This document shows, piece by piece, positions 30,741 to 52,359 of a stretch of 64,000 nucleotides of DNA (position 1 is its first letter; each line of letters begins with the position of its first letter). Made by a program: the position numbers and the translations under genes. The DNA is from Escherichia phage ALITA: sequence record PP359570; one strand, given 5' to 3'. Under the pieces are notes generated by a model. The model saw only the letters and a list, made by a program, of their open reading frames with translations. It was not told where the DNA came from and did no database searches.

Positions 30741-31730
30741 CTATTCCTCCATACATTTAAGAATATGTGCAATGACAGGTATAGTCCAACCGTTACCTAA
30801 CATCTTATATGCTTGTGTGTTACTACTCACTTTAAAGTAGTCATCTGGCACACCTTGCAAACGGCAACACTCTTTAACGGTTAACTTTCTATAATGTACG
30901 CCTTCACTCAATTTTTCAAAAGCATCTAAATATCTTCCAGGTGGAATGTAAGCTAATAGTACGTCTTTCGGCACAGTCGTGAGGCAACGAGTTTTTTCAC
31001 TGTCCTGAACTTCCAAACAATGTACCAAACGATCAGTTTTAGATGTACTACGTTTGCCATTTTCATTAATTCTACGCCCATATATTGCTGCTGGATAAAA
31101 AACCAGTTGTCTGCGACTCTTTTCAAAATACTGTTCTATATTACCACCTTTGGCATAATTTGCATCTATGCAATAAGCCTTATCTCTGTCTACAATACTA
31201 TCATCTTCAATGATATCTTGCAACACTTCATTGGTAATATCCCAGGGTTTTATTTCCCAGTTGCACCAGTATAAACGTTGTCTATTCTGTGCCGTGAAAT
31301 CTGCGGAGTTAATGAATACGGGATCAACACCTAAGTAACTTGTGATCACGTTTTCCCACTCCACTTTCATCTTAACGTTTTCAAGCATGAACTTAACATT
31401 AGGGTTAAACTTTTTAATATGTTCAAGAATCTCAACATATTCGAAGAATAGCTTAGATCGCGGATCTTGAAAGTTCAAACCCTTACCAGAAGAAGAGAAG
31501 CCTTGACACGGACTACCACCTAACAAAAGATCAATTTCTCCCCACGGGATATCCCATTCTCTCCATTTTGTAACATCACCTAACTGAATAATATCTGGAA
31601 AATTTGCTTGGCTTTCAGCTATGGCGAATTTGTCTAATTCTGAAGCATAATATGTATCTACGTCAATACCTGCACTTTTTAGCGCAAGCATTCCTCCTGA
31701 CATGCCATCAAAAAGACTTAAAACTTTCAT
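30741..31730 (-). CDS. DNA (cytosine-5)-methyltransferase
   Basis: Motif I LSLFDGMSGG, motif IV GGSPCQGFS (PCQ), motif VI MLENV. Confidence 0.85.
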   Translation of the reverse strand: MKVLSLFDGMSGGMLALKSAGIDVDTYYASELDKFAIAESQANFPDIIQLGDVTKWREWDIPWGEIDLLLGGSPCQGFSSSGKGLNFQDPRSKLFFEYVEILEHIKKFNPNVKFMLENVKMKVEWENVITSYLGVDPVFINSADFTAQNRQRLYWCNWEIKPWDITNEVLQDIIEDDSIVDRDKAYCIDANYAKGGNIEQYFEKSRRQLVFYPAAIYGRRINENGKRSTSKTDRLVHCLEVQDSEKTRCLTTVPKDVLLAYIPPGRYLDAFEKLSEGVHYRKLTVKECCRLQGVPDDYFKVSSNTQAYKMLGNGWTIPVIAHILKCMEE

Positions 31731-36706: not shown

Positions 36707-36945
36707 TCGTTGTTACGAGCATTTTCAAGAACCTTGACAACTTCTGCATACTCTACAGCTAAACCAGCACACACTTCAGCTTGTTTTGCAATTGCTTGTT
36801 TAAAGAACATAGCGATTGCAACACTCTGTGTTGTGTGAATGTTATCTGCTTTAGTTGATACGTGAAGATCAAAATCTTCTTCATCAAAGGGGAGTTCCAT
36901 AGTAACAATAAATTTCTCGGTCATAAAAATGCTCCTCTTAAACAA
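36694..36945 (-). CDS. hypothetical protein (83 aa)
   Basis: ORF-track ORF. Confidence 0.4.
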   Translation of the reverse strand: MFKRSIFMTEKFIVTMELPFDEEDFDLHVSTKADNIHTTQSVAIAMFFKQAIAKQAEVCAGLAVEYAEVVKVLENARNNDWEE

Positions 36946-37447
36946 AATAGAAAGGTTGAGTTAAACCCAGCCTGTTTTTTGGGTCGTAGACGTACCAAGC
37001 ATATGCTGTCTTATCAGTACCACCTGCAACAAAAGATGGTCGTTCAGAAAGAACAATCAAATTTGTTGGTGGATTCTGTTTATGGAACTCCCTTCGTTTA
37101 ATAGACTCTAGGAACCCAAGACGCAACAAGTATATGCAAACGTCTGCTTCTTTTAAGCTCTTTTGCAAGAACTCAAGTGCAAGTTTGAATGGGGGATTTG
37201 TGATTATAATATCCGGCTTAGTATGCCATTCGTGGTTAAAATAATCTTTCCCTTCTTCTAACTCACAATATTCTGATCCTTCTGGAAAATGTTGATAAAT
37301 TGCAGCAGCAGCACCTTTACACGGTTCTGCAAAAATAAAACCTTCTTCTTTAAGGTTATTAAAATCTATTACACTAAATAATGCATTTATACATTTTTGT
37401 GGAGTAGGATAGTAATCAGTTGGTGGACGATCATACTTATTTGCCAC
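36938..37447 (-). CDS. small phage-type DNA N6-adenine methyltransferase
   Basis: YYPTP, FAEPCKGAAAA (AdoMet-binding-like) and DIIITNPPF (NPPF motif IV). Confidence 0.65.
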   Translation of the reverse strand: MANKYDRPPTDYYPTPQKCINALFSVIDFNNLKEEGFIFAEPCKGAAAAIYQHFPEGSEYCELEEGKDYFNHEWHTKPDIIITNPPFKLALEFLQKSLKEADVCIYLLRLGFLESIKRREFHKQNPPTNLIVLSERPSFVAGGTDKTAYAWYVYDPKNRLGLTQPFYFV

Positions 37448-40539: not shown

Positions 40540-40806
40540 TTACTCCGCAATCTGAGCCATGAATTCACGTAGTTCAGAAAAACCTCCTACGTGGGTTAGC
40601 TGTTCACCATCTTCCACAAAAATCTGAGGAAATGTACGTGGTAGAACACCTGTTTTCTCTAAGACCAGATTCTGAATCTGATCTAAAGAATAGTCTTCAT
40701 CTAAGGTAAGGTATTTAAAATCCTGTTCACGCTGTTCTAGTAGAATCTTAGCGTTAGTGCAGAAAGGACAATTTGGTTTACCGTAGATAATAAAATTCAT
40801 TTTCAC
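40540..40806 (-). CDS. nrdC: glutaredoxin (NrdC-like)
   Basis: IIYGKPNCPFCTNAK (CPFC active site) and C-terminal HVGGFSELREF parallel T4 NrdC. Confidence 0.8.
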   Translation of the reverse strand: MKMNFIIYGKPNCPFCTNAKILLEQREQDFKYLTLDEDYSLDQIQNLVLEKTGVLPRTFPQIFVEDGEQLTHVGGFSELREFMAQIAE

Positions 40807-41633
40807 TCCTTGTTTAAAAGTATAGTTAAAGTTCTTACAATACCGCTATCAACACTTCGCGGATTTAAAGTAGGATCTGTTTTTAAATAAGATGTTGCTG
40901 GTCTGACTGCTTTGGAGTTATAGGTTGAAGCAGACACAGGATTAACTGTAACCGATAAATCTATAACAAGAAATATCTTACGTGCAAAGTCATACCAAGA
41001 AATATAATCTGCACCTGCATAGTGTACAATTTTACTATTTACACCATCTTTTACAAGTTTAAAAATTGTTTCTGCAAGATCAGGTGCATAAGTAGGACAC
41101 GACAAATGATCACATACTACATTAAATTCTTTTTGACCACCGTTGTAGCGTTCCAACATAGTTTTCAAAAAGTTATGTCCAAATTCACTATAAACAGAAG
41201 CTGTTCTGATAATAAGTGCTGTAGGACAAACTGTTTGTACTAAAGTTTCACCTAATTGTTTACTATAACCGTAGGTGTTCAAGGGGTTTGTTTTACTATC
41301 TTCTGTACCAGCAACATGCCCATCAAAAACATAGTCTGTTGAAATATGTACAAACTGTATCAGTAAATCATTACATGCTTTGGCAATGTTTGTTGCACCG
41401 TATGCATTAACATTTATACAGGTGTTAACATCTTCTTCAGCTTTATCTACTGCCGTGTAAGCCGCACAATTCACAACAACATCAGGCACATGCTGTACAA
41501 GATTATTCATAACATCTTTAAAGTTGGTAATGTCTACATCACTTGCTTCAATCAAAATAACATCTTCGGGCGCAACTTTTGCCAAAGACTGTCCTAATTG
41601 ACCTTTTGAACCAAAGATTAAAAATTTTGTCAA
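40803..41633 (-). CDS. rmlD: dTDP-4-dehydrorhamnose reductase
   Basis: MTKFLIFGSKGQLGQSL nucleotide-binding start, SDR-like STDYVFDG; last gene of rml operon. Confidence 0.8.
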   Translation of the reverse strand: MTKFLIFGSKGQLGQSLAKVAPEDVILIEASDVDITNFKDVMNNLVQHVPDVVVNCAAYTAVDKAEEDVNTCINVNAYGATNIAKACNDLLIQFVHISTDYVFDGHVAGTEDSKTNPLNTYGYSKQLGETLVQTVCPTALIIRTASVYSEFGHNFLKTMLERYNGGQKEFNVVCDHLSCPTYAPDLAETIFKLVKDGVNSKIVHYAGADYISWYDFARKIFLVIDLSVTVNPVSASTYNSKAVRPATSYLKTDPTLNPRSVDSGIVRTLTILLNKE

Positions 41634-42184
41634 AGTATGATCTCCTTTAGTGTTTTTGCTTCCTGATCTTTTTGTGACAAGATAGGTTTAAAATTAATAT
41701 CATTAAAGATTAAATCAAAACCCCAATCTATATTGATATCTGGATCATTCCACGCAAGACTACACTCTGAAGTCGGATCGTAATATTCTGTACACTTATA
41801 TTCAAAATCAGCAATATCGCTAATCACAACAAAGCCATGAGCGAAACCAGGAGGAATCCAAAATTGTGTTTTATTCTTTTCAGATAAGAGAACACCTACC
41901 CATTCTCCAAATGTTGGACTACCAACTCTAATATCTACAGCAACATCATAAACTTCACCACGAACACAACGTACTAACTTCCCTTGTGGGTTTTTCTTTT
42001 GAAAATGAAGCCCACGTAGAACTCCTCGGATAGAACGTGAATGGTTATCTTGGACAAAGTTTTGTTTACCTATGTATTGATCATATAAAGCCTGATTAAA
42101 ACTTTCTAAGAAAAAACCACGTTCATCTCCGTAAACGTCAGGTTGAATGATCAACAAATCTTCGATTTTTGTTGCTTGAATCAT
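41630..42184 (-). CDS. rmlC: dTDP-4-dehydrorhamnose 3,5-epimerase
   Basis: RGFFLESF...GVLRGLHFQ...VRCVRGEVYDVAVDIR cupin blocks. Confidence 0.85.
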   Translation of the reverse strand: MIQATKIEDLLIIQPDVYGDERGFFLESFNQALYDQYIGKQNFVQDNHSRSIRGVLRGLHFQKKNPQGKLVRCVRGEVYDVAVDIRVGSPTFGEWVGVLLSEKNKTQFWIPPGFAHGFVVISDIADFEYKCTEYYDPTSECSLAWNDPDINIDWGFDLIFNDINFKPILSQKDQEAKTLKEIIL

Positions 42185-42196
42185 TTAATCTCCCCT

Positions 42197-43066
42197 TTAT
42201 TTTAATTTAAGTAAATACTTGCCGTAGTCTGTTTTACTTAAAACCTCTCCAGAACTTTTTACGGAATCTAAAGTAATCCATTCATTTTTAAAAGCAATCT
42301 CTTCTAGACATGCAACCTTCATACCTTGTTGCTTTTCTATTGCATGAACAAATTGAGATGCTTCCATAAGACTTTCATGTGTTCCTGTATCCAGCCAAGT
42401 GAAACCTCTTCCTAGCTTACAGACACGTAAAGCCTTTTCTTTCCAGTACATCTCATTTATATCTGTGATCTCTAACTCCCCTCTAGCAGAAGGCTTAACG
42501 CTTTTAGCTTTCTGTATAACAGAATTATCGTAAAAGTACAAGCCTGTAATTGCATAGTTGCTTTTTGGTGCTTTTGGTTTTTCTTCAATACTTACCACTG
42601 TACCTTCAGAATCAAACTCAACAACACCAAATCTTTCAGGATCATTTACGTGATACCCAAAAATATTAGCTCCACCATTCTTTTCAATATGTTCTCTAGC
42701 AGAATCTAAAATGCTACCAAAACTCTGACCAAAGAATAAATTATCACCTAGAACAAGTGCTACAGAATCTTCACCAATAAAGCTCTCACCAATAATAAAC
42801 GCTTCTGCTAAACCTTTTGGGCTGTCCTGTATTGCATACTGTAGGGAAACACCAAAAGAAGAACCATCACCTAGAAGATTTACAAAATTAATTTGATCTT
42901 CTGGTGTTGTAATTATTAGTATTTCCCTAATTCCAGAAAGCATTAGGACAGAGAGTGGATAATAAATCATAGGTTTATCGTAAATTGGTAATAGTTGTTT
43001 ACTAACCCCTTTAGTAACTGGGTAAAGTCTTGTTCCACTACCACCCGCTAAGATAATACCTTTCAT
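42197..43066 (-). CDS. rmlA: glucose-1-phosphate thymidylyltransferase
   Basis: [18 protein letters not shown]...[17 protein letters not shown] signature. Confidence 0.9.
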
Positions 43067-43074
43067 ACTCCTCC

Positions 43075-44064
43075 TTAAACTTTATTTTCCCACCACTCTT
43101 TGTTATCTACATACCAATCAATGGTTGAATAAAGTTTTTCTTCAAATGTGCCTTTAGCTTTCCACCCTAATTCCTTTTCAATCTTATAAGGATTCACTTC
43201 ATATCTTAGATCATGTCCAGGTCTATCTGTAACCATCTCAATTAGGCTACAAGCATCTGTTTCAGATGGATACACCGCATCCATATAATCACAAATCATA
43301 TAGATTACATCAATATTAGTTCTAGGGTTTCTGCTCCCAATATTATATGTTTCTCCAGATTTGCCTTTAGTTACTACTAGGTGTAATGCTTCTGCGTGAT
43401 CGTCAACGTATAACCAGTCTCTTACCTGAAGACCATTGCCATAAACAGGGATTGGTTTATTCATCAAGATATTTGTTATCGTTTTAGGTATTAGTTTTTC
43501 TGGATGATGGTATGCTCCAAAATTATTTGAACAATTTGTTATAACTGTCGGAATACCATAAGTACGATGCCACGCTCTTACCAAATGATCGCTTGCTGCC
43601 TTAGATGCAGCATATGGACTACTTGGCTTATAAGGATTCTGTTCTGTAAACGGATAATCCCCTTCTTCCATATCACCATATACTTCATCTGTTGAAATAT
43701 GATGGAACATTTTAAGATTTGATTTATCTCCCATTAAACGAACAGCTTCTAGGAGATTAAATGTCCCAACAATATTTGAATTTATAAAAACACTCGGTGA
43801 TGCTATTGAATTATCTACGTGACTTTCTGCTGCAAGATGCATTATATAATCTGGATTAACATCTGCCACAATCTTAGCAGTTAACTGCGCATTTGTCAAG
43901 TCAACACGACAAAACTTTACATTGGGTGTTTCTGATAAATTTCTAGGGTCTGAAGCGTAACCCCATTTATCTATAACGTAAATATCATTTTTAGTATTTT
44001 TAGCCAGGAAACGAACTACTGCACTTCCAATAAAGCCTAAACCACCTGTTACTAAGTATTTCAT
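43075..44064 (-). CDS. rmlB: dTDP-glucose 4,6-dehydratase
   Basis: [36 protein letters not shown] catalytic YxxxK. Confidence 0.9.
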
Positions 44065-44943: not shown

Positions 44944-45130
44944 ACTTGGCTACACCATTAACTATAATATGACCGCAAGACAGAACTCCTAGCCAATGAT
45001 CACCATTCTTTTTTAAACGTTTACCGTAAACATCACAGAAACCATTCTGTAATTCGGAAGCCTCATAAGAGGCTCCCTTTTCGAAAACGTCTTTGAAGTC
45101 AGAAATTAATCCAACACAAAGTAGTTTCAT
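44912..45130 (-). CDS. hypothetical protein (72 aa)
   Basis: ORF-track ORF; start overlaps nrdB stop. Confidence 0.4.
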   Translation of the reverse strand: MKLLCVGLISDFKDVFEKGASYEASELQNGFCDVYGKRLKKNGDHWLGVLSCGHIIVNGVAKFEIIKGEKDD

Positions 45131-46215
45131 TAGAAGTCTAACTCCTCGTCATCACTTACATCTTTATTTGCTGAATTCAGTTTGTAAGCTGTAATTTGGA
45201 TCTCCTGTGCTGCTGCTTGAATTTGATCTGGGTTTAACCAAACATCCATCCAAGGCAGTGGACTTTTCTTCGGTGCACGGAATTTGTGTTTCATTTTCAG
45301 TCTGCGATAGATAGGTGCAGCATTGAAGTAAACCCAAAGTTTGAACAACTCTGCGTTACCACCAACGATAACCCTTCCTTCACTAAACAGATAGTCACAC
45401 CAATCTTCCTCTTGTCCAACTACCGTGTCAAGAATTTCTGTCAGAACGTCGATATTATCTTCGTATACTTTTCTCCAAACAGGATCTTTCAGCAGTGCAT
45501 CAATAATAGCATAATCCATTTTAACGTGCAATAGTTCATCCAACATAATTTTTTGAATGAGTTTAGCTGCACCTACAAACAATTGCTGCTCTGCTAAGGC
45601 AAATGTTGCAGCAAAAGAGGATATGAATTGAATGCCTTCCAGACCGATAAGTGCAATCATTCCTTTCAAGATCAGTAGACGAAGGTTATCATCCTTCTCA
45701 ATCAGACCTAGAGCATATTTATGTCCTGCCTCTGCCAGATCACCCATTATCTCTTCAACTATACCCATCCTCTGGAAGATTCTTTCATTCTCCATAATCT
45801 GATCGATAACTTCATTTGGATTAGGGATACACTGACGAATAATTTCAGAATATGTCAAAGCGTGTAAAACTTCCATTTCTGATTGCTTCATCATCATTGC
45901 ACATGCTTCGTTGTTGCTTAAAAATGGTGCAAACAAAGTGATGATTGATTTAGCAAGTGAATCATTTTCCCATTGGAAAGATAGGTTTTTGATCATAACA
46001 TCATAGTTGCTTTTAGAACAAGCTACGAAATCTTTTCGTGTCTGATCTAAGTTTACTTCGTTTTCATCCCAATCTTGCTGTTTTTGTAGTTTGTACAGAC
46101 GATGCATTTCTGGGTATGTTACATTAATAGAATCAAAAATACCTAACTGTTCTCCCAAAAATACAGGGTAGAAACCTTCTTTGTAAGTGTCGTTGTATAA
46201 GTTAATTGCTGCCAT
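45130..46215 (-). CDS. nrdB: ribonucleotide reductase class Ia small (beta) subunit
   Basis: 361 aa, uninterrupted; ferritin-like helices with acidic/His iron-ligand pattern and C-terminal acidic tail DDEELDF. Confidence 0.9.
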   Translation of the reverse strand: MAAINLYNDTYKEGFYPVFLGEQLGIFDSINVTYPEMHRLYKLQKQQDWDENEVNLDQTRKDFVACSKSNYDVMIKNLSFQWENDSLAKSIITLFAPFLSNNEACAMMMKQSEMEVLHALTYSEIIRQCIPNPNEVIDQIMENERIFQRMGIVEEIMGDLAEAGHKYALGLIEKDDNLRLLILKGMIALIGLEGIQFISSFAATFALAEQQLFVGAAKLIQKIMLDELLHVKMDYAIIDALLKDPVWRKVYEDNIDVLTEILDTVVGQEEDWCDYLFSEGRVIVGGNAELFKLWVYFNAAPIYRRLKMKHKFRAPKKSPLPWMDVWLNPDQIQAAAQEIQITAYKLNSANKDVSDDEELDF

Positions 46216-46537
46216 TTAAATCCTCCACAATATCACACATTGCTTTTATTGTATCAATGTGTTCTCTCTCCATACCATCATCTAGGTAAGCCTTCTCTAA
46301 TGCGTCCCATACACTCTTTGTGAGTAGTATAGTAACCTCTCCCTCATACCTTGCTCTGGTTAAAGCATACCAGGTAGCTATGGGATCATTGGAAGCCCAT
46401 ATTTCAACACTGGAAAATTGAAAACCTGCAATATAATGACAACACCAATCGAATGTAAAATCTTTACTATCTACCAGTGTATAATTTCCCCAGCGTCTTT
46501 GTGGTGTTGCTCCAGGTAATACAACTAATGTAGGCAT
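46202..46537 (-). CDS. hypothetical protein between nrdA and nrdB (111 aa)
   Basis: Track ORF 46202..46612 trimmed to ATG after aaggagg SD. Confidence 0.45.
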   Translation of the reverse strand: MPTLVVLPGATPQRRWGNYTLVDSKDFTFDWCCHYIAGFQFSSVEIWASNDPIATWYALTRARYEGEVTILLTKSVWDALEKAYLDDGMEREHIDTIKAMCDIVEDLNGSN

Positions 46538-46549
46538 ATTCCTCCTTAA

Positions 46550-46571
46550 GAAAGGGGGACAAAGCCCCCTA
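46550..46571 (-). terminator. GC hairpin just downstream of nrdA
   Basis: agggggacaaagccccct; possible attenuator/processing site; approx. Confidence 0.35.
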
Positions 46572-46577
46572 GTTTCA

Positions 46578-48839
46578 TTACATCTTACAAGCCTCACAAC
46601 CGGATTCTTCATCCTCTTGAGCGAGTGAGGTTGCCGATTTTGTTCTGCTATTTAGATAGTACAAAGATTTACCACCAAGTTTTGCAAACTGAAGAATATA
46701 TTGCATTTCTGATTTAATGGATAAACGACCACCTTCCATCTTAGAATAGTCAATCCACTTATCACATGATGCACCTTGATCTAAGAATTTAGTCAACAGC
46801 CCATATGCTTCAGCCATATCTTTATCTGGTGTATCCCAAGCCGATTGGTAAATATCTTTTAGTTTATCGTAGTCTGGCACAATAAACAGAACATTACCCT
46901 TTTGGCTTTGTTTATAAACTATAGTATCACGTACAGGATACACAGAGTTAGTCGTATTACTTACAAGACTACTGGACTCATTTGGAGCAATAGCTGCTAA
47001 TACACTATTTCGGATACCGCCCTGTGCAATGATATCTTGTCGTAAACCTTCCCAATCCATTTTAAGTTTAAAATTGCCAATATCGTCTACAGCTTTAGCG
47101 TAGGTGTCAATAGGCAACCATCCTTCAGGCCATTTGGTTTTATGCATCCATTCTGCATTACCTTTCTCTTTTGCCAAACGAAGAGAAGCTCTTGCTAACC
47201 AATAATAATGTCTTTCTGCTAATTCGTGAATTAGTTTTTTGCCGTAAGGATCTGAATAAGTAACAAAATTACTTGCCAGATAATGTGCAAGGTTTGTAAT
47301 ACCTACACCGATAGACCTACGTGCTTTAGCAGTGATTTCGTTATGTTTAAACGGATACTGCATTGTTTCAATAACATTATCAATAGTTAGAACGGTATAA
47401 TATGCAACATCTTCATATTCTTCTGGTGTAACACGACCAGCTACAATAGAAGACAGGAAGCATAATGCCAATTCTTGGTCTTCTGTATTCTCACCTGTGA
47501 AAAGATCAGTCATATTGTGAAATGCTTTCGTAGGTAAGAAAATTTCTTGGCACAAGTTTGACTGGTAAATAACATCCTTAAACGGAGTATGCTTATTAGC
47601 ATTATCCGCAAAGAACATATAAATACGTCCTGTTTCTGCTCTTTGTGTAATAATTTCTGCCAGAAGATCTCGTGCTTTTACAAACTTCTTCTTAATTCGT
47701 TTGCGACTAACTTTTTCATATACTTCTTCAAACTCTTCCTCGCTTTTATAAAGCGCCTCATAGAGTTCTGGTGCTTCGTCATAACTGACTAGCATCCAAT
47801 CTTTACCTTTTGCTGCACGTCGCAGGAAAGCATTGTTTACTACAATAGAGTAATCAAGTTTATCTACTCGTTTTTCACTAACAGTAGTTGGGTTTTTCAA
47901 ACGTACCAGATCTTCAAAATCAGGTTCTAATATTGTAAACGTTACTGTTGCACTTCCACCACGGCTTGCTTGTTTTGATGCTCCAACACTTGTCTCCATC
48001 CATTTCAGATATGGTAAAAGACCACCGTGAACGATACGGTTGTTCTTAACACCTTGTCCTGTAGCACGGGTTTGGAGGTTAACACCAATACCTGCATTAT
48101 TCAATGTATATTCATGAGCAAGATAGTTAGCAATTGCTAAAGACTCTGCTGTATCATCTGCTCTAAACAGACAACAAGAAGCACTACCTTTAATCTTAGT
48201 ACGCAAAGTTGTTAAATAAGGCGATGGTAAATTAATCTTAAGATCACTTACGTAGGTATATAGACGTTTAATGTCTTCTACTCTGCGATCTTTTGGTTGA
48301 ATTTCCATTACCTTCATTGCTACACCAATGAATAAAAACTGTGGTGATTCAAAAACAACATCATTGATCGCATCTTTCACAAGATACTTATCAACCATCT
48401 GGCGCAGTACGGAATAACCATAAGTTAGGTTTTTATCGTGATTGACAATCTTACCAATCTCAATAATTTCTTCTTCTGTATAATCCATTTTTCCCCAATA
48501 GCCTTTACTTACAGACATATTGTAGAAATCCAGGAGGGAGGGGATATTGTGATATCCCCCATGAGCCTGTTTATAAATCATACCAAGAAGTAACCGACCT
48601 GCCATATCACTATATGCCTGATCTTTCTTATCAATACATGCTGCTATCATAGCTTTATGTAAATCACGAGTAGGCACACCGTCGTAACAACGTTTAACAG
48701 CTTCGAGTTCGATTTCAGACCAATTTAATTTACCAGCAGCAAACTCTGACCATTTACGAAGTTTTTCTGGATTAAATTCTTCTTTCTTGCCGTTTGTTTT
48801 TGTTACATAACGGATAGATTTGCTTAGATACTGAGTCAC
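46578..48839 (-). CDS. nrdA: ribonucleotide reductase class Ia large (alpha) subunit
   Basis: 753 aa; N-terminal ATP-cone-like segment, catalytic core blocks, C-terminal CEACKM-type Cys pair. Confidence 0.95.
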   Translation of the reverse strand: MTQYLSKSIRYVTKTNGKKEEFNPEKLRKWSEFAAGKLNWSEIELEAVKRCYDGVPTRDLHKAMIAACIDKKDQAYSDMAGRLLLGMIYKQAHGGYHNIPSLLDFYNMSVSKGYWGKMDYTEEEIIEIGKIVNHDKNLTYGYSVLRQMVDKYLVKDAINDVVFESPQFLFIGVAMKVMEIQPKDRRVEDIKRLYTYVSDLKINLPSPYLTTLRTKIKGSASCCLFRADDTAESLAIANYLAHEYTLNNAGIGVNLQTRATGQGVKNNRIVHGGLLPYLKWMETSVGASKQASRGGSATVTFTILEPDFEDLVRLKNPTTVSEKRVDKLDYSIVVNNAFLRRAAKGKDWMLVSYDEAPELYEALYKSEEEFEEVYEKVSRKRIKKKFVKARDLLAEIITQRAETGRIYMFFADNANKHTPFKDVIYQSNLCQEIFLPTKAFHNMTDLFTGENTEDQELALCFLSSIVAGRVTPEEYEDVAYYTVLTIDNVIETMQYPFKHNEITAKARRSIGVGITNLAHYLASNFVTYSDPYGKKLIHELAERHYYWLARASLRLAKEKGNAEWMHKTKWPEGWLPIDTYAKAVDDIGNFKLKMDWEGLRQDIIAQGGIRNSVLAAIAPNESSSLVSNTTNSVYPVRDTIVYKQSQKGNVLFIVPDYDKLKDIYQSAWDTPDKDMAEAYGLLTKFLDQGASCDKWIDYSKMEGGRLSIKSEMQYILQFAKLGGKSLYYLNSRTKSATSLAQEDEESGCEACKM

Positions 48840-48850
48840 TTCCTCTCCTA

Positions 48851-49111
48851 TTAATTGTGCATGTTTAGAACATCTACATCATAACCGCCACGCATCTCAT
48901 TATATAAGCCATTTGCGTATAGAAAACCTTCAAAATGATCTATACCTTCAAAACCTTTTGCCTTTGCTTTGCGGTCTGCTTCTTGTCTTTTTGGAGATAA
49001 TCTTTTAGATGTATCAAGGATAACTGTTACATTGCAACCTAATGTTTCATCAAAATAGACTTCAATTTCACAGCCTTCATATTTATTACTTTCTGTCATT
49101 TGGCCTCTCAA
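48851..49111 (-). CDS. hypothetical protein (86 aa)
   Basis: ORF-track ORF. Confidence 0.45.
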   Translation of the reverse strand: MRGQMTESNKYEGCEIEVYFDETLGCNVTVILDTSKRLSPKRQEADRKAKAKGFEGIDHFEGFLYANGLYNEMRGGYDVDVLNMHN

Positions 49112-49522
49112 TTAGAATTCAGAATCATCATCTCGTGATGGATCATGTTCATTTCCGAAGTCTTCCATTTTGATATGAGAGCTACCCCAACCTGTAAAAT
49201 CTTCTTCTCCAAAGTGCAAAATATCTACACCTTGATAGATTCGCTTATATTTATAGTCCTGTCGAACTGGGAAAGTATACAATGTAGTATTTGCAAACAC
49301 CACACGTCGATTGTTGTTACTACGAATATTAACACCACGTTCTACTGTATAATGTCCATCGGTAGACATACCAAGCATTACTAATGCTGCTCGCAATGTA
49401 GTGTTATGATACTCGTGAGGAATTTTTCCTCCGTGCTTTTTAGCCATTTCTTTCCAGATCGGTGTAGCCTTAATGGTAGACATACTTACGGTCGCCCAAA
49501 TGGTTGTATTAATTAGTGACAT
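49112..49522 (-). CDS. hypothetical protein (136 aa)
   Basis: ORF-track ORF; preceded on - strand by promoter + hairpin. Confidence 0.5.
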   Translation of the reverse strand: MSLINTTIWATVSMSTIKATPIWKEMAKKHGGKIPHEYHNTTLRAALVMLGMSTDGHYTVERGVNIRSNNNRRVVFANTTLYTFPVRQDYKYKRIYQGVDILHFGEEDFTGWGSSHIKMEDFGNEHDPSRDDDSEF

Positions 49523-49539
49523 AAATTCTCCTTCTCTCT

Positions 49540-49601
49540 TTTAAGGAGAGCATAGCTCTCCTAACGTTAGCCTATACTACACGAATCTCAATTAAAAGTC
49601 A
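49540..49601 (-). promoter_or_regulatory. sigma70-type promoter + 5' hairpin on - strand
   Basis: - strand reads TTGACT-17-TAGTAT then AGGAGAGCtatGCTCTCCT hairpin, SD, ATG; approx. Confidence 0.4.
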
Positions 49602-49619
49602 ACTATAATTTTAAATTGA

Positions 49620-50591
49620 TCACCATTTTGTATGGTTAGTCAAAAGTTGACGATGTTGAATCCAACCACAGAAGTTTCCACTCCACAAACGATGTTTACG
49701 ATCCATATGTGTAATACCTTCTTCCCAAGAAGTAGGGAACGGAGGAATATTAATACCACCTTTCTGTTGTTTTAATCCTGACAAATCCATTTCTTTCATT
49801 GGCGTTGCCTGGTGTTCAAACGGAGATGCATGTACCTTTTGTCCAGACAGCAAACGAGAATAGATATCCAATGCTTTATCTTTAGTATCATTCAATTTAC
49901 GATAACTTACCTGAGCGCAACAAGAAGCTGAAATAGCTTTTGCTTCCTCTTCTGTCAACATTTTCTCGTTGGAGAAGGTTTCACCCAAGAAATAACGGAT
50001 CATACCAGTTTCTGGATCTCGATCACGATTAACGTAAGGTGTATGCCATTCCCCTGGGAAAAGAAGATATGGTTCAGAAGATTCATACAGTTTTTTAATT
50101 TCTTTAGCAAGAGCCTCAATAGTAGGATCTGCATCAGCATCTACGCGCAACCACAAGAAGTTTTCTAGCTCTGTAGTGGTTACTACAGTCTTCATACGTT
50201 GGAATGGTTCTAGTAGGCGGTTTGCAACCTGTTTATGATAACCAGCAAGGGCAAACTCTTCTGCAAAACGTGCAGCACTTAGCGCAGCTAAGTCCCACCA
50301 TTCTTTTGCAGTGTAACCTGCATCAATCAGGGCATCGTGATCTGTGCCTTTATCTTGCATACCTGGTTGGTTAGCACCAAAACGATAAGGACGTGCTGGA
50401 GATTGCCGTACCATTTCAATTAGAGTTTTAACAGGAATAGCTCGACTTGATGCGGCATTACGAGAAAACAAACGATGCGTCATCAATTCAGAGTGAATGA
50501 TTCGGGGATATTCAAGTTCAAAGGTAACAATATCCTTACCTTCAGATGTTTGAGAGTGTGCAATAATTTTTGCTGAAATAGAATTTGTCAT
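49620..50591 (-). CDS. thyX: flavin-dependent thymidylate synthase (ThyX-like)
   Basis: IVTFELEYPRIIHSELMTHRLFSRNAASSRA parallels ThyX FTFEI...SHQLVRHRIASYSQQSQRY, but first Arg of RHR is Thr here. Confidence 0.6.
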   Translation of the reverse strand: MTNSISAKIIAHSQTSEGKDIVTFELEYPRIIHSELMTHRLFSRNAASSRAIPVKTLIEMVRQSPARPYRFGANQPGMQDKGTDHDALIDAGYTAKEWWDLAALSAARFAEEFALAGYHKQVANRLLEPFQRMKTVVTTTELENFLWLRVDADADPTIEALAKEIKKLYESSEPYLLFPGEWHTPYVNRDRDPETGMIRYFLGETFSNEKMLTEEEAKAISASCCAQVSYRKLNDTKDKALDIYSRLLSGQKVHASPFEHQATPMKEMDLSGLKQQKGGINIPPFPTSWEEGITHMDRKHRLWSGNFCGWIQHRQLLTNHTKW

Positions 50592-50600
50592 TATTTCTCC

Positions 50601-51191
50601 TTAAGGTAGTAAAATACTTTCAATTTCTTCCCACTGATTATCTAAACCAGTGATAATTACATTAGGAAGTTTCTTTAACTCTTCCAAGTATGGATCTTCG
50701 TAAATAGTGTTGAAATATATTTTCAACGTTTCATCTGGAAATAGGACAAGATTTTCAGCCCTATCGTCAATAGTTACGTCGCAAGGTAATAAGTATTTTT
50801 CTTTTGTTGCGAAAAAGCCATTACCAGATGTTCTACTAAAGTCCACTTTATCTAAAGATCGTGTTACGTGTCTATATTTAGAACTAAGGTGTCCACCCTT
50901 AGTGTGGCTTGCTATAGATATATTAGCTCCATTTGCAATTATACGATGAACAACATCTGTACTATTAGGTACTACTCCCATAGTATCATATAGATGTTGG
51001 TTATCCCAAAAAGAGTAAGGATCTACACCAAATTGCTTTTTAAAATCAGGAAAATATTTCGTAATATCATAATGCACAGTCTTATGTGCCTTATCAAATT
51101 TGATATTAGATCTACTTACCGCATTTAACCAACTCAACCATTCTACATCGGCAGGAGCTATTACTAAATCCCAATCACATACTAGACGCAT
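50601..51191 (-). CDS. HAD-family 5'(3')-deoxyribonucleotidase-like protein (196 aa)
   Basis: Track ORF 50601..51305 trimmed to MRLVCDWDLVIA (aggagaa SD); D.D nucleophile motif at N-terminus. Confidence 0.55.
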   Translation of the reverse strand: MRLVCDWDLVIAPADVEWLSWLNAVSRSNIKFDKAHKTVHYDITKYFPDFKKQFGVDPYSFWDNQHLYDTMGVVPNSTDVVHRIIANGANISIASHTKGGHLSSKYRHVTRSLDKVDFSRTSGNGFFATKEKYLLPCDVTIDDRAENLVLFPDETLKIYFNTIYEDPYLEELKKLPNVIITGLDNQWEEIESILLP

Positions 51192-51738
51192 TATTTCTCC
51201 TGTTATAACATTTTCTACACATTGTTTCGTAAATGTCTTCTCCTCCAATAACAATCTGTTCTTTAGAGTCGATAAGTCTAGCATTGAAAATAGCTTTTCT
51301 TCCACATTTACAAATGCTTTTCAATTCTGTAATTGAATCTGCTATGGCTAATAACCGTTCAGAACCTTCGAACAATTCTGTAGCAAAATCTGTTTTAAGC
51401 CCATAACAGAATACAGGAATATCGTAATTATCTACCACATCTCCAAGAATGTCAACCATATCTTTAGTTAGGAATTGTGATTCGTCCACAAACACTGCAT
51501 CTACTGGATTTTCTTTAAGTTGTGTATAAATTTCCAGCATATCTTCTTTTGTTTTAACTGGTTTTGCTTCCTCTTTAATACCTATCCTAGAAGCAATAGC
51601 ACAACCAGATCTAGTATCTAAAGCTGAAGTTAAAAGAAGAACTTTCATATTTCTTTCTTTATAGTTCCAAGCTGTTTGTAGCAGATGTGTGCTTTTACCA
51701 CTGTTCATCGGACTGTATCGGAAATAAAGTTTAGCCAT
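51175..51738 (-). CDS. tk: thymidine kinase
   Basis: YSPMNSGKSTHLL P-loop, VDESQFL, C-terminal CKCG...CRKCY Zn motif; near-collinear with T4 Tk. Confidence 0.9.
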   Translation of the reverse strand: MAKLYFRYSPMNSGKSTHLLQTAWNYKERNMKVLLLTSALDTRSGCAIASRIGIKEEAKPVKTKEDMLEIYTQLKENPVDAVFVDESQFLTKDMVDILGDVVDNYDIPVFCYGLKTDFATELFEGSERLLAIADSITELKSICKCGRKAIFNARLIDSKEQIVIGGEDIYETMCRKCYNRRNNASSM

Positions 51739-51783: not shown

Positions 51784-52359
51784 TTATTTCTCTTCGTCAA
51801 GAAGAATTTTTACTATTTGTTTTCTTCGCTTACTTACTGTACTTTCTGGTGAAATTCCGCGCTTCGTTAGCCAATTTTTATCCTTTTTAGACTGGCATAA
51901 AGCTATCGCTTCCTTCTCCGCTTTTGCTTCCCTGAATGTCATATCGTGCTTGTCAGCATAAGCCAGGATAGCGTTACACTGCTTACAAACTACACGCAGG
52001 TCGTCTTCTGTTACGTACAATAGGCGTAAAACAAAACTTGGGATATCTTCATAACAGGTTAATGTACCTGCTGCATTAATATGGTCTACTTGAAAGTCTT
52101 TCATACCTCCTGTATGTCCACACAATTCACACTTACAATTCCAAACCTGTTTCGGTTTGCCTGTTTTCTTATCTAAAACTATATTTCCATCTTTATCCAA
52201 CCTATCCGCTTTAAATCGTACAGATTGGATCTTTTTTATCTTATTCGGGTGTCTCACCCATGCTTTCCTTAAGCAACCCCTTAAATATGTATAAAAGGCT
52301 GCTTGAGTTTTCCAAGGTGTTCCATCTCCCCAAATAACTTTAGGTTCTTTATTTTCCAA
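51784..52359 (-). CDS. HNH homing-endonuclease-like protein
   Basis: CELCGHTGGMKDFQVDHINAAG ... CKQCNAILAYADKH fits HNH pattern. Confidence 0.6.
   Translation of the reverse strand: MENKEPKVIWGDGTPWKTQAAFYTYLRGCLRKAWVRHPNKIKKIQSVRFKADRLDKDGNIVLDKKTGKPKQVWNCKCELCGHTGGMKDFQVDHINAAGTLTCYEDIPSFVLRLLYVTEDDLRVVCKQCNAILAYADKHDMTFREAKAEKEAIALCQSKKDKNWLTKRGISPESTVSKRRKQIVKILLDEEK

Follow-up and report, generated by a model that had tools for sequence, protein, structure and literature searches.

A ThyX-like protein with a probably rearranged sequence order as the candidate thymidylate synthase of Escherichia phage ALITA

ThyX has been studied in depth, serves as a target for antibacterial drugs, and is recognised in genomes by its signature motif. 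Canonical members (PF02511, TIGR02170; Thermotoga maritima TM0449 1O26, Mycobacterium tuberculosis 2AF6, PBCV-1 4FZB) are about 220 amino acids (aa) long and form homotetramers that bind FAD and share their active sites. The subject of this analysis is a ThyX-like gene of Escherichia phage ALITA that encodes a protein of 323 aa; it lies in a stretch of 64,000 nucleotides of sequence record PP359570, which is called the window below. In contrast to canonical ThyX, the ALITA protein and its subfamily appear to carry the helices of the His53 motif after the core; they have Thr at the start of the RHR triplet, a basic residue at +6, Ala for Tyr91, and Ala or Ser for Glu86. The roles of the RHR motif and of Ser, Arg and Tyr residues in the ThyX active site have been described (PMC6514825). 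In the enzymes of M. tuberculosis and Helicobacter pylori the first Arg hydrogen-bonds the flavin ring and helps to hold deoxyuridine monophosphate (dUMP), and the canonical Tyr91 forms a lid that shields uracil C5 and flavin N5 from solvent (PMC6514825).

Three described groups of proteins come close to the ALITA protein in one respect or another. PolB (4P5A), which methylates UMP and dUMP at C5 in polyoxin biosynthesis, shares 15-17% identity with it, a negligible margin over true ThyX; PolB keeps the normal ThyX order and comes from an antibiotic gene cluster, whereas the ALITA protein appears permuted and sits in a phage module for deoxynucleotide (dNTP) synthesis. Proteins annotated as ThyX in Roseobacter phage SIO1, Pseudomonas phage PSA11, coliphage TH33 and Bacillus phage Glittering read KHQ, KHK or KYV in place of RHR, and in these, too, the first Arg is not invariant. 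They have the normal order and about 220 aa, start the triplet with Lys and end the signature with S-R-R-Y, whereas the ALITA subfamily has Thr and Ala at the respective ends. Five normally ordered phage proteins with this varying triplet were inspected and turned out to share an extra K-Q-G-S motif. Judged by such sequences, the textbook signature of ThyX is looser in phages than is usually stated. Finally, the ThyA-family hydroxymethylases of dUMP and dCMP (T4 gp42, SPO1 gp29, ViI, M6) also occur in phage nucleotide-metabolism modules and provide a precedent for a thymidylate-synthase relative with a non-methyl product. However, their fold is unrelated, such a gene is absent here, and the phage group to which ALITA belongs is restriction-sensitive.

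The comparison of sequence profiles makes it very likely that the ALITA protein and its subfamily are homologous to ThyX in a rearranged, permuted order. The Pfam family Thy1 matches the protein with 36.9 bits against a gathering cut-off of 24.8 bits, covering residues 22-170 only (profile positions 59-186 of 191). The N-terminus lacks the first third of the ThyX domain, and the core is followed by 150 extra residues. In hhalign comparisons with an alignment of canonical ThyX, residues 12-193 fall on ThyX 52-212 (probability 96-97%, E 5e-10), and residues 205-264 on ThyX 7-66, that is, on the helices ending in G-H53-x-x-P-F-E-H59 (probability 87-90%). The normal order places the His53 helices before the RHR loop; here the His53-type segment lies after the core. 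The tail that follows the displaced segment weakly resembles ThyX strand beta4 and the next helix (ThyX about 150-178; hhalign). It contains conserved positions of its own, N306 in 92% of the subfamily and Q312 and R314 each in at least 93%.

Restoring the canonical order in silico improved the match to ThyX profiles. When residues 205-260 were placed before residues 21-175, the Thy1 score rose from 36.9 to 49.4 bits and the match became continuous over profile positions 13-186, and the score against TIGR02170 rose from 35.5 to 48.8 bits over positions 13-205. A hidden Markov model built from ten canonical ThyX proteins gave 34.2 bits for the re-permuted sequence and 18.9 bits for the core alone, and 19.5 ± 1.5 bits (maximum 26.3, n = 200) when the moved segment was shuffled. 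Among other 56-residue pieces of the protein, none scores as well except one overlapping the moved segment. The C-terminal half alone has no Pfam match; its homology becomes visible with the profile-profile comparison and the re-permuted construct.

The AlphaFold2 (AF2) model of the full protein has a pLDDT (predicted local distance difference test) of 78.5 and a pTM (predicted template modelling score) of 0.80, the C-terminal half ranging from about 66 to 94 and lying mostly above 80. Predicted by itself, the same half reaches a pLDDT of 53.6. These models fit one integrated fold rather than an independent C-terminal domain. The loop that carries the THR triplet is disordered in the AF2 model, as expected for a substrate loop. 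The ThyX three-dimensional fold was recovered, and the predicted place of the moved segment within it derives from the sequence alignment. By fold and domain, then, the protein is a member of ThyX, and it departs from the family in the strict signature, the equivalog score and collinearity. Its order, which resembles that of a circular permutation, probably arose through a tandem duplication and then a complementary loss of parts, a route suggested by the weak likeness of the tail to beta4.

The signature loop of the ALITA protein is the peptide THRLFSRNAASSR (residues 38-50, with T38, H39, R40, S43, R44, N45, S48 and R50; DNA 50442-50480, minus strand). A DNA search located ACGCATCG at 50473-50480, within this minus-strand loop. 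In a HMMER alignment the peptide matches RHRIASYNELSGR of Thermotoga maritima ThyX (residues 78-90, with R78-H79-R80, S83 and S88-G-R90) column for column. The original prediction that the first Arg of RHR is replaced by Thr is borne out by the alignment to the T. maritima chains, in which T38 stands opposite R78. Where the strict signature has R-H-R-x(2)-S-x(4)-S-x-R-Y, the ALITA protein has T-H-R-x(2)-S-x(4)-S-x-R-A, and the subfamily retains the His, both Ser and the last Arg of the signature. A non-canonical residue of this kind needs a family-wide check before it is read as a functional novelty. Thr was found in 226 of the 229 motif matches among 270 collected homologs. When 128 diverse members were aligned, 96% had Thr; the conservation values of this text refer to that alignment. 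On these counts T38 is a fixed trait of the subfamily and not a change peculiar to ALITA, and it is therefore uninformative on this phage or its rml genes.

Further positions of the loop differ from canonical ThyX across the subfamily. Position 44, which is Tyr or Trp in canonical ThyX, is basic in 96% of the members (R 68%, K 28%), and the residue after the last Arg of the motif (A51, Tyr91 in T. maritima) is Ala in 100%. Ala or Ser stands in place of Glu86. Basic residues at position 38 and at position 44 tend to exclude each other: both, 38 only, 44 only and neither occur 1, 3, 122 and 2 times, respectively (Fisher p 1e-4, with no phylogeny correction). Because of this anticorrelation, R44 or K44 probably takes over the charge of the lost Arg, which would have been relocated within the same flexible substrate loop.

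The remaining active site is strongly conserved. In T. maritima numbering, H79, S88, R90, R174, H53 and S30 are kept in 100% of the members, N169 and H59 in 99%, and N85 in 96%; the equivalents of S88, R90 and R174, which bind uracil and phosphate, are thus invariant. In the ALITA protein itself, H39, S48, R50, R149 and H254 stand at positions with 100% conservation and N144 at one with 99%. The displaced segment is no exception, with S229 and H254 at 100%, S256 at 98%, E259 at 94% and H260 at 99%. According to the titles of Protein Data Bank (PDB) entries, the solved mutant structures of T. maritima ThyX target S88, R90, Y91, H53, E144 and R174. The PDB holds H53 mutants, one of them with bound folate, and His53 has therefore been treated as a functional residue.

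Inteins provided an additional view of these motifs. Inteins are typically found within the conserved active-site motifs of enzymes connected with replication. Of the homologs, 17 have lengths of 425-683 aa, and at least 15 of these are single copies that carry an insert; the inserts measure roughly 180-340 aa, and most of them about 300 aa. The junctions show the hallmarks of inteins, namely Cys on the N-terminal side and, on the C-terminal side, HN or GN with Cys or Ser after it. Pfam assigned an intein splicing domain with HNH, or LAGLIDADG domains, to all four inserts searched. The intein-bearing homologs, at least fifteen, are of metagenomic origin. At least six distinct insertion sites were found, all inside or beside three motifs: between H33 and residue 34, after R40, after F42, after S48, shortly after R149 and directly after H254. 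The intein positions mark the same three motifs as the ThyX alignment (the THR loop, R149 and H254), including the displaced His motif. Another idea was that the homologs of about 630 aa are tandem doubles, which would mimic a tetramer in a single chain; this was rejected, as domain mapping showed one copy and an intein of about 300 aa.

The subfamily is widespread. More than 7400 relatives of the ThyX-like protein are present in a protein collection clustered at 90%, matches at E up to 0.001 were obtained with about 4960 clusters at 50% identity, and tblastn revealed a homolog in 1034 phage records. The carriers of the gene include rV5-like, phAPEC8-like and PVP-SE1-like myoviruses, Vibrio phage ICP1, Pseudomonas Pakpunavirus and KPP10-like phages, N4-like Schitoviridae, phiCbK-like Caulobacter phages and Flavobacterium phages. 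With more than 1000 sequenced phages, the branch includes the cholera phage ICP1, therapeutic Pseudomonas Pakpunaviruses, and rV5- and phi92-like coliphages. By the sequences collected so far it seems to be a large, phage-only and apparently uncharacterised subfamily. The N4-like phage JWAlpha has its homolog a few kb away from a gene for dCTP deaminase, an enzyme of dUMP supply, and ICP1 has its own near nrdA. No partner gene shared beside the homologs was found in ICP1, Pakpunavirus and JWAlpha, and no rml genes are present in the loci of these three phages (12.9 kb each, plus the first 50 kb of JWAlpha). In one rV5-like phage, ECP26 (vB_EcoM-ECP26), the ThyX-like gene is annotated as two open reading frames (ORFs) of 245 and 97 aa (BFVD A0A4Y5TVX3, A0A4Y5TVY4); a frameshift, a sequencing error or a real split could be the cause.

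GenBank records annotate the gene of this subfamily plainly as thymidylate synthase. If the proteins are active, they would reveal what the ThyX active site can do without and what can be moved, and mechanistic studies would gain a naturally occurring circular permutant. Should they not be plain synthases of deoxythymidine monophosphate (dTMP), nucleotide metabolism is mis-annotated in many model and therapeutic phages. The ALITA protein is in either case relevant to ThyX enzymology and to phage annotation, and it gives no evidence for exotic DNA.

We consider it likely that the product of the ThyX-like gene makes dTMP, that is, that it acts as the phage's own flavin-dependent thymidylate synthase. 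The 323-aa protein would use FAD (flavin adenine dinucleotide), NAD(P)H and methylene-tetrahydrofolate to methylate dUMP to dTMP; we infer both the binding of FAD and the product from the sequence. Together with ribonucleotide reductase NrdAB, glutaredoxin, thymidine kinase and the NT5C-like nucleotidase, such an enzyme would supply deoxythymidine triphosphate (dTTP), which would serve the replication of an AT-rich genome of about 146 kb and the adjacent dTDP-rhamnose pathway. A tblastn search of the window and of the complete genome of the closely related Escherichia phage muut with ThyA, FolA, Dut, Dcd and Tmk of Escherichia coli and with T. maritima ThyX gave nothing significant. Neither in muut nor in the curated BASEL phage PaulScherrer is a further thymidylate synthase or a dihydrofolate reductase (DHFR) annotated. 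Since no other thymidylate synthase was found, the ThyX-like gene is the only candidate of the phage for dTMP synthesis. The absence of DHFR fits the chemistry of ThyX, because ThyX yields tetrahydrofolate and not dihydrofolate. Genomes with ThyX usually do without ThyA and DHFR, and the same combination is seen in the window and in muut.

Several observations speak against a permuted, dTMP-forming ThyX. Both the first Arg and the lid Tyr are replaced across the subfamily, and either change could alter the chemistry. Outside the loop, R147 aligns to N124, and R125 is one position off. The covariation of positions 38 and 44 rests on four sequences, and its statistic is uncorrected for phylogeny. 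The NCBIfam thyX equivalog TIGR02170 demands 87.9 bits, a score reached by neither the native nor the re-permuted sequence; the profile of the family matches the T. maritima ThyX chains marginally (E 0.3), and a single-sequence search against the PDB sequences gave no match. The permutation is deduced from sequence profiles and AF2 confidence, and a two-domain pseudo-dimer may be the alternative. The literature search found no described permuted ThyX and no published biochemical assay or other experimental test of any member of the subfamily.

Another explanation starts from the altered active site. The replacement of Arg by Thr and of the lid Tyr by Ala might change the product or the substrate, for example by letting water attack the exocyclic methylene, which would give 5-hydroxymethyl-dUMP; this base would enter the DNA and be decorated there with rhamnose by means of the neighbouring rml pathway and the glycosyltransferases of the phage. 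We regard this as very unlikely, although both residues that contact or shield the reacting atoms are replaced across the family (their roles are described in PMC6514825). The original prediction had taken the Thr as a possible sign of action on a modified pyrimidine, in keeping with a hypermodification pathway at which the rml operon also hinted. This reading finds no support: the same T38/A51 signature is found in ICP1, Pakpunavirus, N4-like and phiCbK-like phages, and the loci inspected in ICP1, Pakpunavirus and JWAlpha are without rml. The lost charge, moreover, appears to have moved to R/K44, and S88, R90 and R174, which bind uracil and phosphate, are invariant.

The genes for sugar synthesis do exist in ALITA. 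A full rmlBACD set with a glutaredoxin gene lies just downstream of the cluster in the same transcription direction, and muut has four glycosyltransferase genes beside those for primase and DNA polymerase (muut 107413-110589, outside the window). The rhamnose may be destined for DNA, a virion protein or a host glycan. RmlA, the first enzyme of the dTDP-rhamnose pathway, uses dTTP to form dTDP-glucose. The position of rml beside genes of dTTP supply is explained more simply by this use of dTTP; the operon itself is present as predicted. The adjacent NT5C-like enzyme could remove dTMP or dUMP, a point in favour of a modification; the phage, however, retains a thymidine kinase that feeds normal dTMP, and encodes ordinary Dcm-like and N6-adenine methyltransferases. 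A link between rml and DNA modification is not a new idea, because Olsen et al. 2020, who described muut, already speculated that hydroxymethylated nucleotides are rhamnosylated via dTDP-rhamnose (PMC7552041).

Data on restriction point away from such a decoration. Maffei et al. 2021 tested three phi92-like phages and found Vequintavirinae and phi92-like phages to be exceptionally susceptible to restriction-modification of types I, II and III (PMC8594841). Effective protection was lacking "despite ... a putative dTDP glycosylation machinery" (PMC8594841). Restriction sensitivity is compatible with a small modification such as 5-hydroxymethyldeoxyuridine (5-hmdU), which it does not strictly exclude, and the literature search found no nucleoside analysis by liquid chromatography-mass spectrometry of Justusliebigvirus DNA. 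Known thymidine hypermodification starts from a ThyA-family hydroxymethylase (PMC8989533). The ThyA-family dUMP hydroxymethyltransferase of the 5-hmdU pathway (Lee et al. 2018, 2021) was not detected by tblastn in the window or in muut, and no flavin-dependent hydroxymethylase of the ThyX type was found in the literature. The broader form of the idea, in which the whole permuted subfamily releases another C5-substituted dUMP such as 5-hydroxymethyl-dUMP and feeds a rhamnose modification of DNA in phi92- and phAPEC8-like phages, seems very improbable to us. If the hydroxymethyl reading were true, this would be the first enzyme of the ThyX fold in a DNA hypermodification pathway.

It is very unlikely as well that the protein methylates another nucleotide or a nucleic acid, either acting on UMP or dUMP in the manner of PolB or modifying uracil in RNA or DNA instead of free dUMP. 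The gene sits among those for ribonucleotide reductase, thymidine kinase and, in other phages, dCTP deaminase, which is a context of deoxynucleotide supply. No second thymidylate synthase was found in the phage, and the residues that bind the nucleotide phosphate are conserved. Lastly, a catalytically dead relic of ThyX whose role is structural or regulatory, perhaps as part of a dNTP-synthesis complex, would account for the failed equivalog threshold, the loss of two canonical active-site residues and the rearranged architecture, but is extremely unlikely given that at least nine active-site positions are 96-100% conserved among members about 40-60% identical to the query, that inteins target exactly those motifs, as is typical of functional sites in essential enzymes, and that a lytic phage of 146 kb and 37% GC has this one candidate for thymidylate synthase.

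As to the gene neighbourhood, the five genes nrdB, nrdA, ThyX-like, NT5C/HAD-like and tk were all confirmed on the minus strand as one cluster (Table 1). The cluster appears to serve dNTP supply, and its candidate thymidylate synthase has a ThyX and not a ThyA fold, both as originally predicted. The contrast with T4 drawn in that prediction is irrelevant, since ALITA is no relative of T4. Over the 6.6-kb region it shares 99% identity with Escherichia phage muut and with some 50 further phi92-like coliphages (Justusliebigvirus, Stephanstirmvirinae). By this match the ALITA window is that of a phi92-like Justusliebigvirus, a large myovirus akin to phAPEC8 and rV5, and not a member of Tevenvirinae. 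The genome type is that of a lytic phage of about 146 kb with an AT-rich sequence of 37% GC. The reductase belongs to class I NrdAB, as the barrel and the all-alpha domain of the large subunit and the domain of the small subunit were all matched by Pfam.

Table 1. Genes of the nucleotide-supply cluster, parts of the ThyX-like protein and the adjacent rml genes (positions in the window)
Feature	Coordinates	Strand	Assignment or content
nrdB, class I ribonucleotide reductase small subunit	45130-46215	-	Pfam Ribonuc_red_sm, E 2e-33, 116 bits; phrog_86
nrdA, class I ribonucleotide reductase large subunit	46578-48839	-	Ribonuc_red_lgC E 7e-99, 332 bits; lgN 43.5 bits; weak ATP-cone
ThyX-like gene, 323 aa	49620-50591	-	Pfam Thy1, 36.9 bits (cut-off 24.8)
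ThyX-like protein, N-terminal half, residues 1-175	50067-50591	-	resembles ThyX 52-212: strand beta3, RHR loop, helical domain, R174 helix (R149 here)
ThyX-like protein, putative displaced ThyX N-terminal segment, residues 205-260	49812-49979	-	AARVSY-like helix, second helix, H254-A-S-P-F-E-H260 = His53 motif
ThyX-like protein, C-terminal tail, residues 261-323	49623-49811	-	variable loop and W-S-G-N..W-x-Q-x-R-Q motif
NT5C/HAD-like 5'(3')-deoxyribonucleotidase candidate, 196 aa	50601-51191	-	Pfam NT5C, E 1e-4, 22.6 bits (cut-off 24.8)
tk, thymidine kinase, TK1 type	51175-51738	-	Pfam TK, E 1e-54, 185 bits, profile 2-176 of 176; phrog_592
rmlB, rmlA, rmlC, rmlD and glutaredoxin	40540-44064	-	Pfam E 1e-72 to 1e-82 (Rml); Glutaredoxin E 9e-12

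The gene that had been predicted to encode a HAD deoxyribonucleotidase is present; its identity as NT5C is weak by score, falling just below the Pfam cut-off, yet its motifs and homologs are consistent with it. PF06941 is on record for 15 of 26 homologs. The HAD motifs D6-x-D8, S95/T97, K130/K132 and D142-D143 are invariant or nearly so in the family, motifs I and IV being invariant. The top matches of the family profile in the PDB are to human mitochondrial 5'(3')-deoxyribonucleotidase (E 0.16), aligned from motif I to motif IV. The longest ORF (50601-51305) begins at a GTG and overlaps tk by about 130 nucleotides. The true start is probably not this GTG at 51305 but the ATG at 51191, which is the RefSeq start and puts the DxD of the HAD motif at residues 6-8.

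Three small conserved ORFs (phrog_15807, phrog_15711, phrog_17458), at 48851-49522 and 46202-46537 on the minus strand, are scattered among nrdB, nrdA and the ThyX-like gene. Pfam matches none of them, and counterparts were not found next to the ThyX-like genes of ICP1, Pakpunavirus and JWAlpha. A free-standing HNH endonuclease ORF (51784-52359, minus strand; phrog_1985, E 9e-66) lies directly upstream of tk, a placement typical of homing endonucleases, which cluster around nucleotide-metabolism genes. The Dcm-like C5-cytosine methyltransferase and the small N6-adenine methyltransferase, at 30741-31730 and 36938-37447 on the minus strand, were assigned by position and synteny with muut and PaulScherrer. 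The phage thus probably carries simple DNA methylation despite the reported restriction sensitivity.

The searches also drew attention to a group of database records. MG065639, MG065645 and MG065656, each labelled 'Campylobacter phage' with host C. jejuni, match this coliphage genus at 98.5% identity along all of the 6.6 kb. In MG065653 and MG065677, likewise labelled 'Campylobacter phage', the ThyX-like gene scores the same as in rV5-like coliphages. It is unlikely that these five records represent Campylobacter phages; the host labels appear to be wrong, or the lysates were contaminated.

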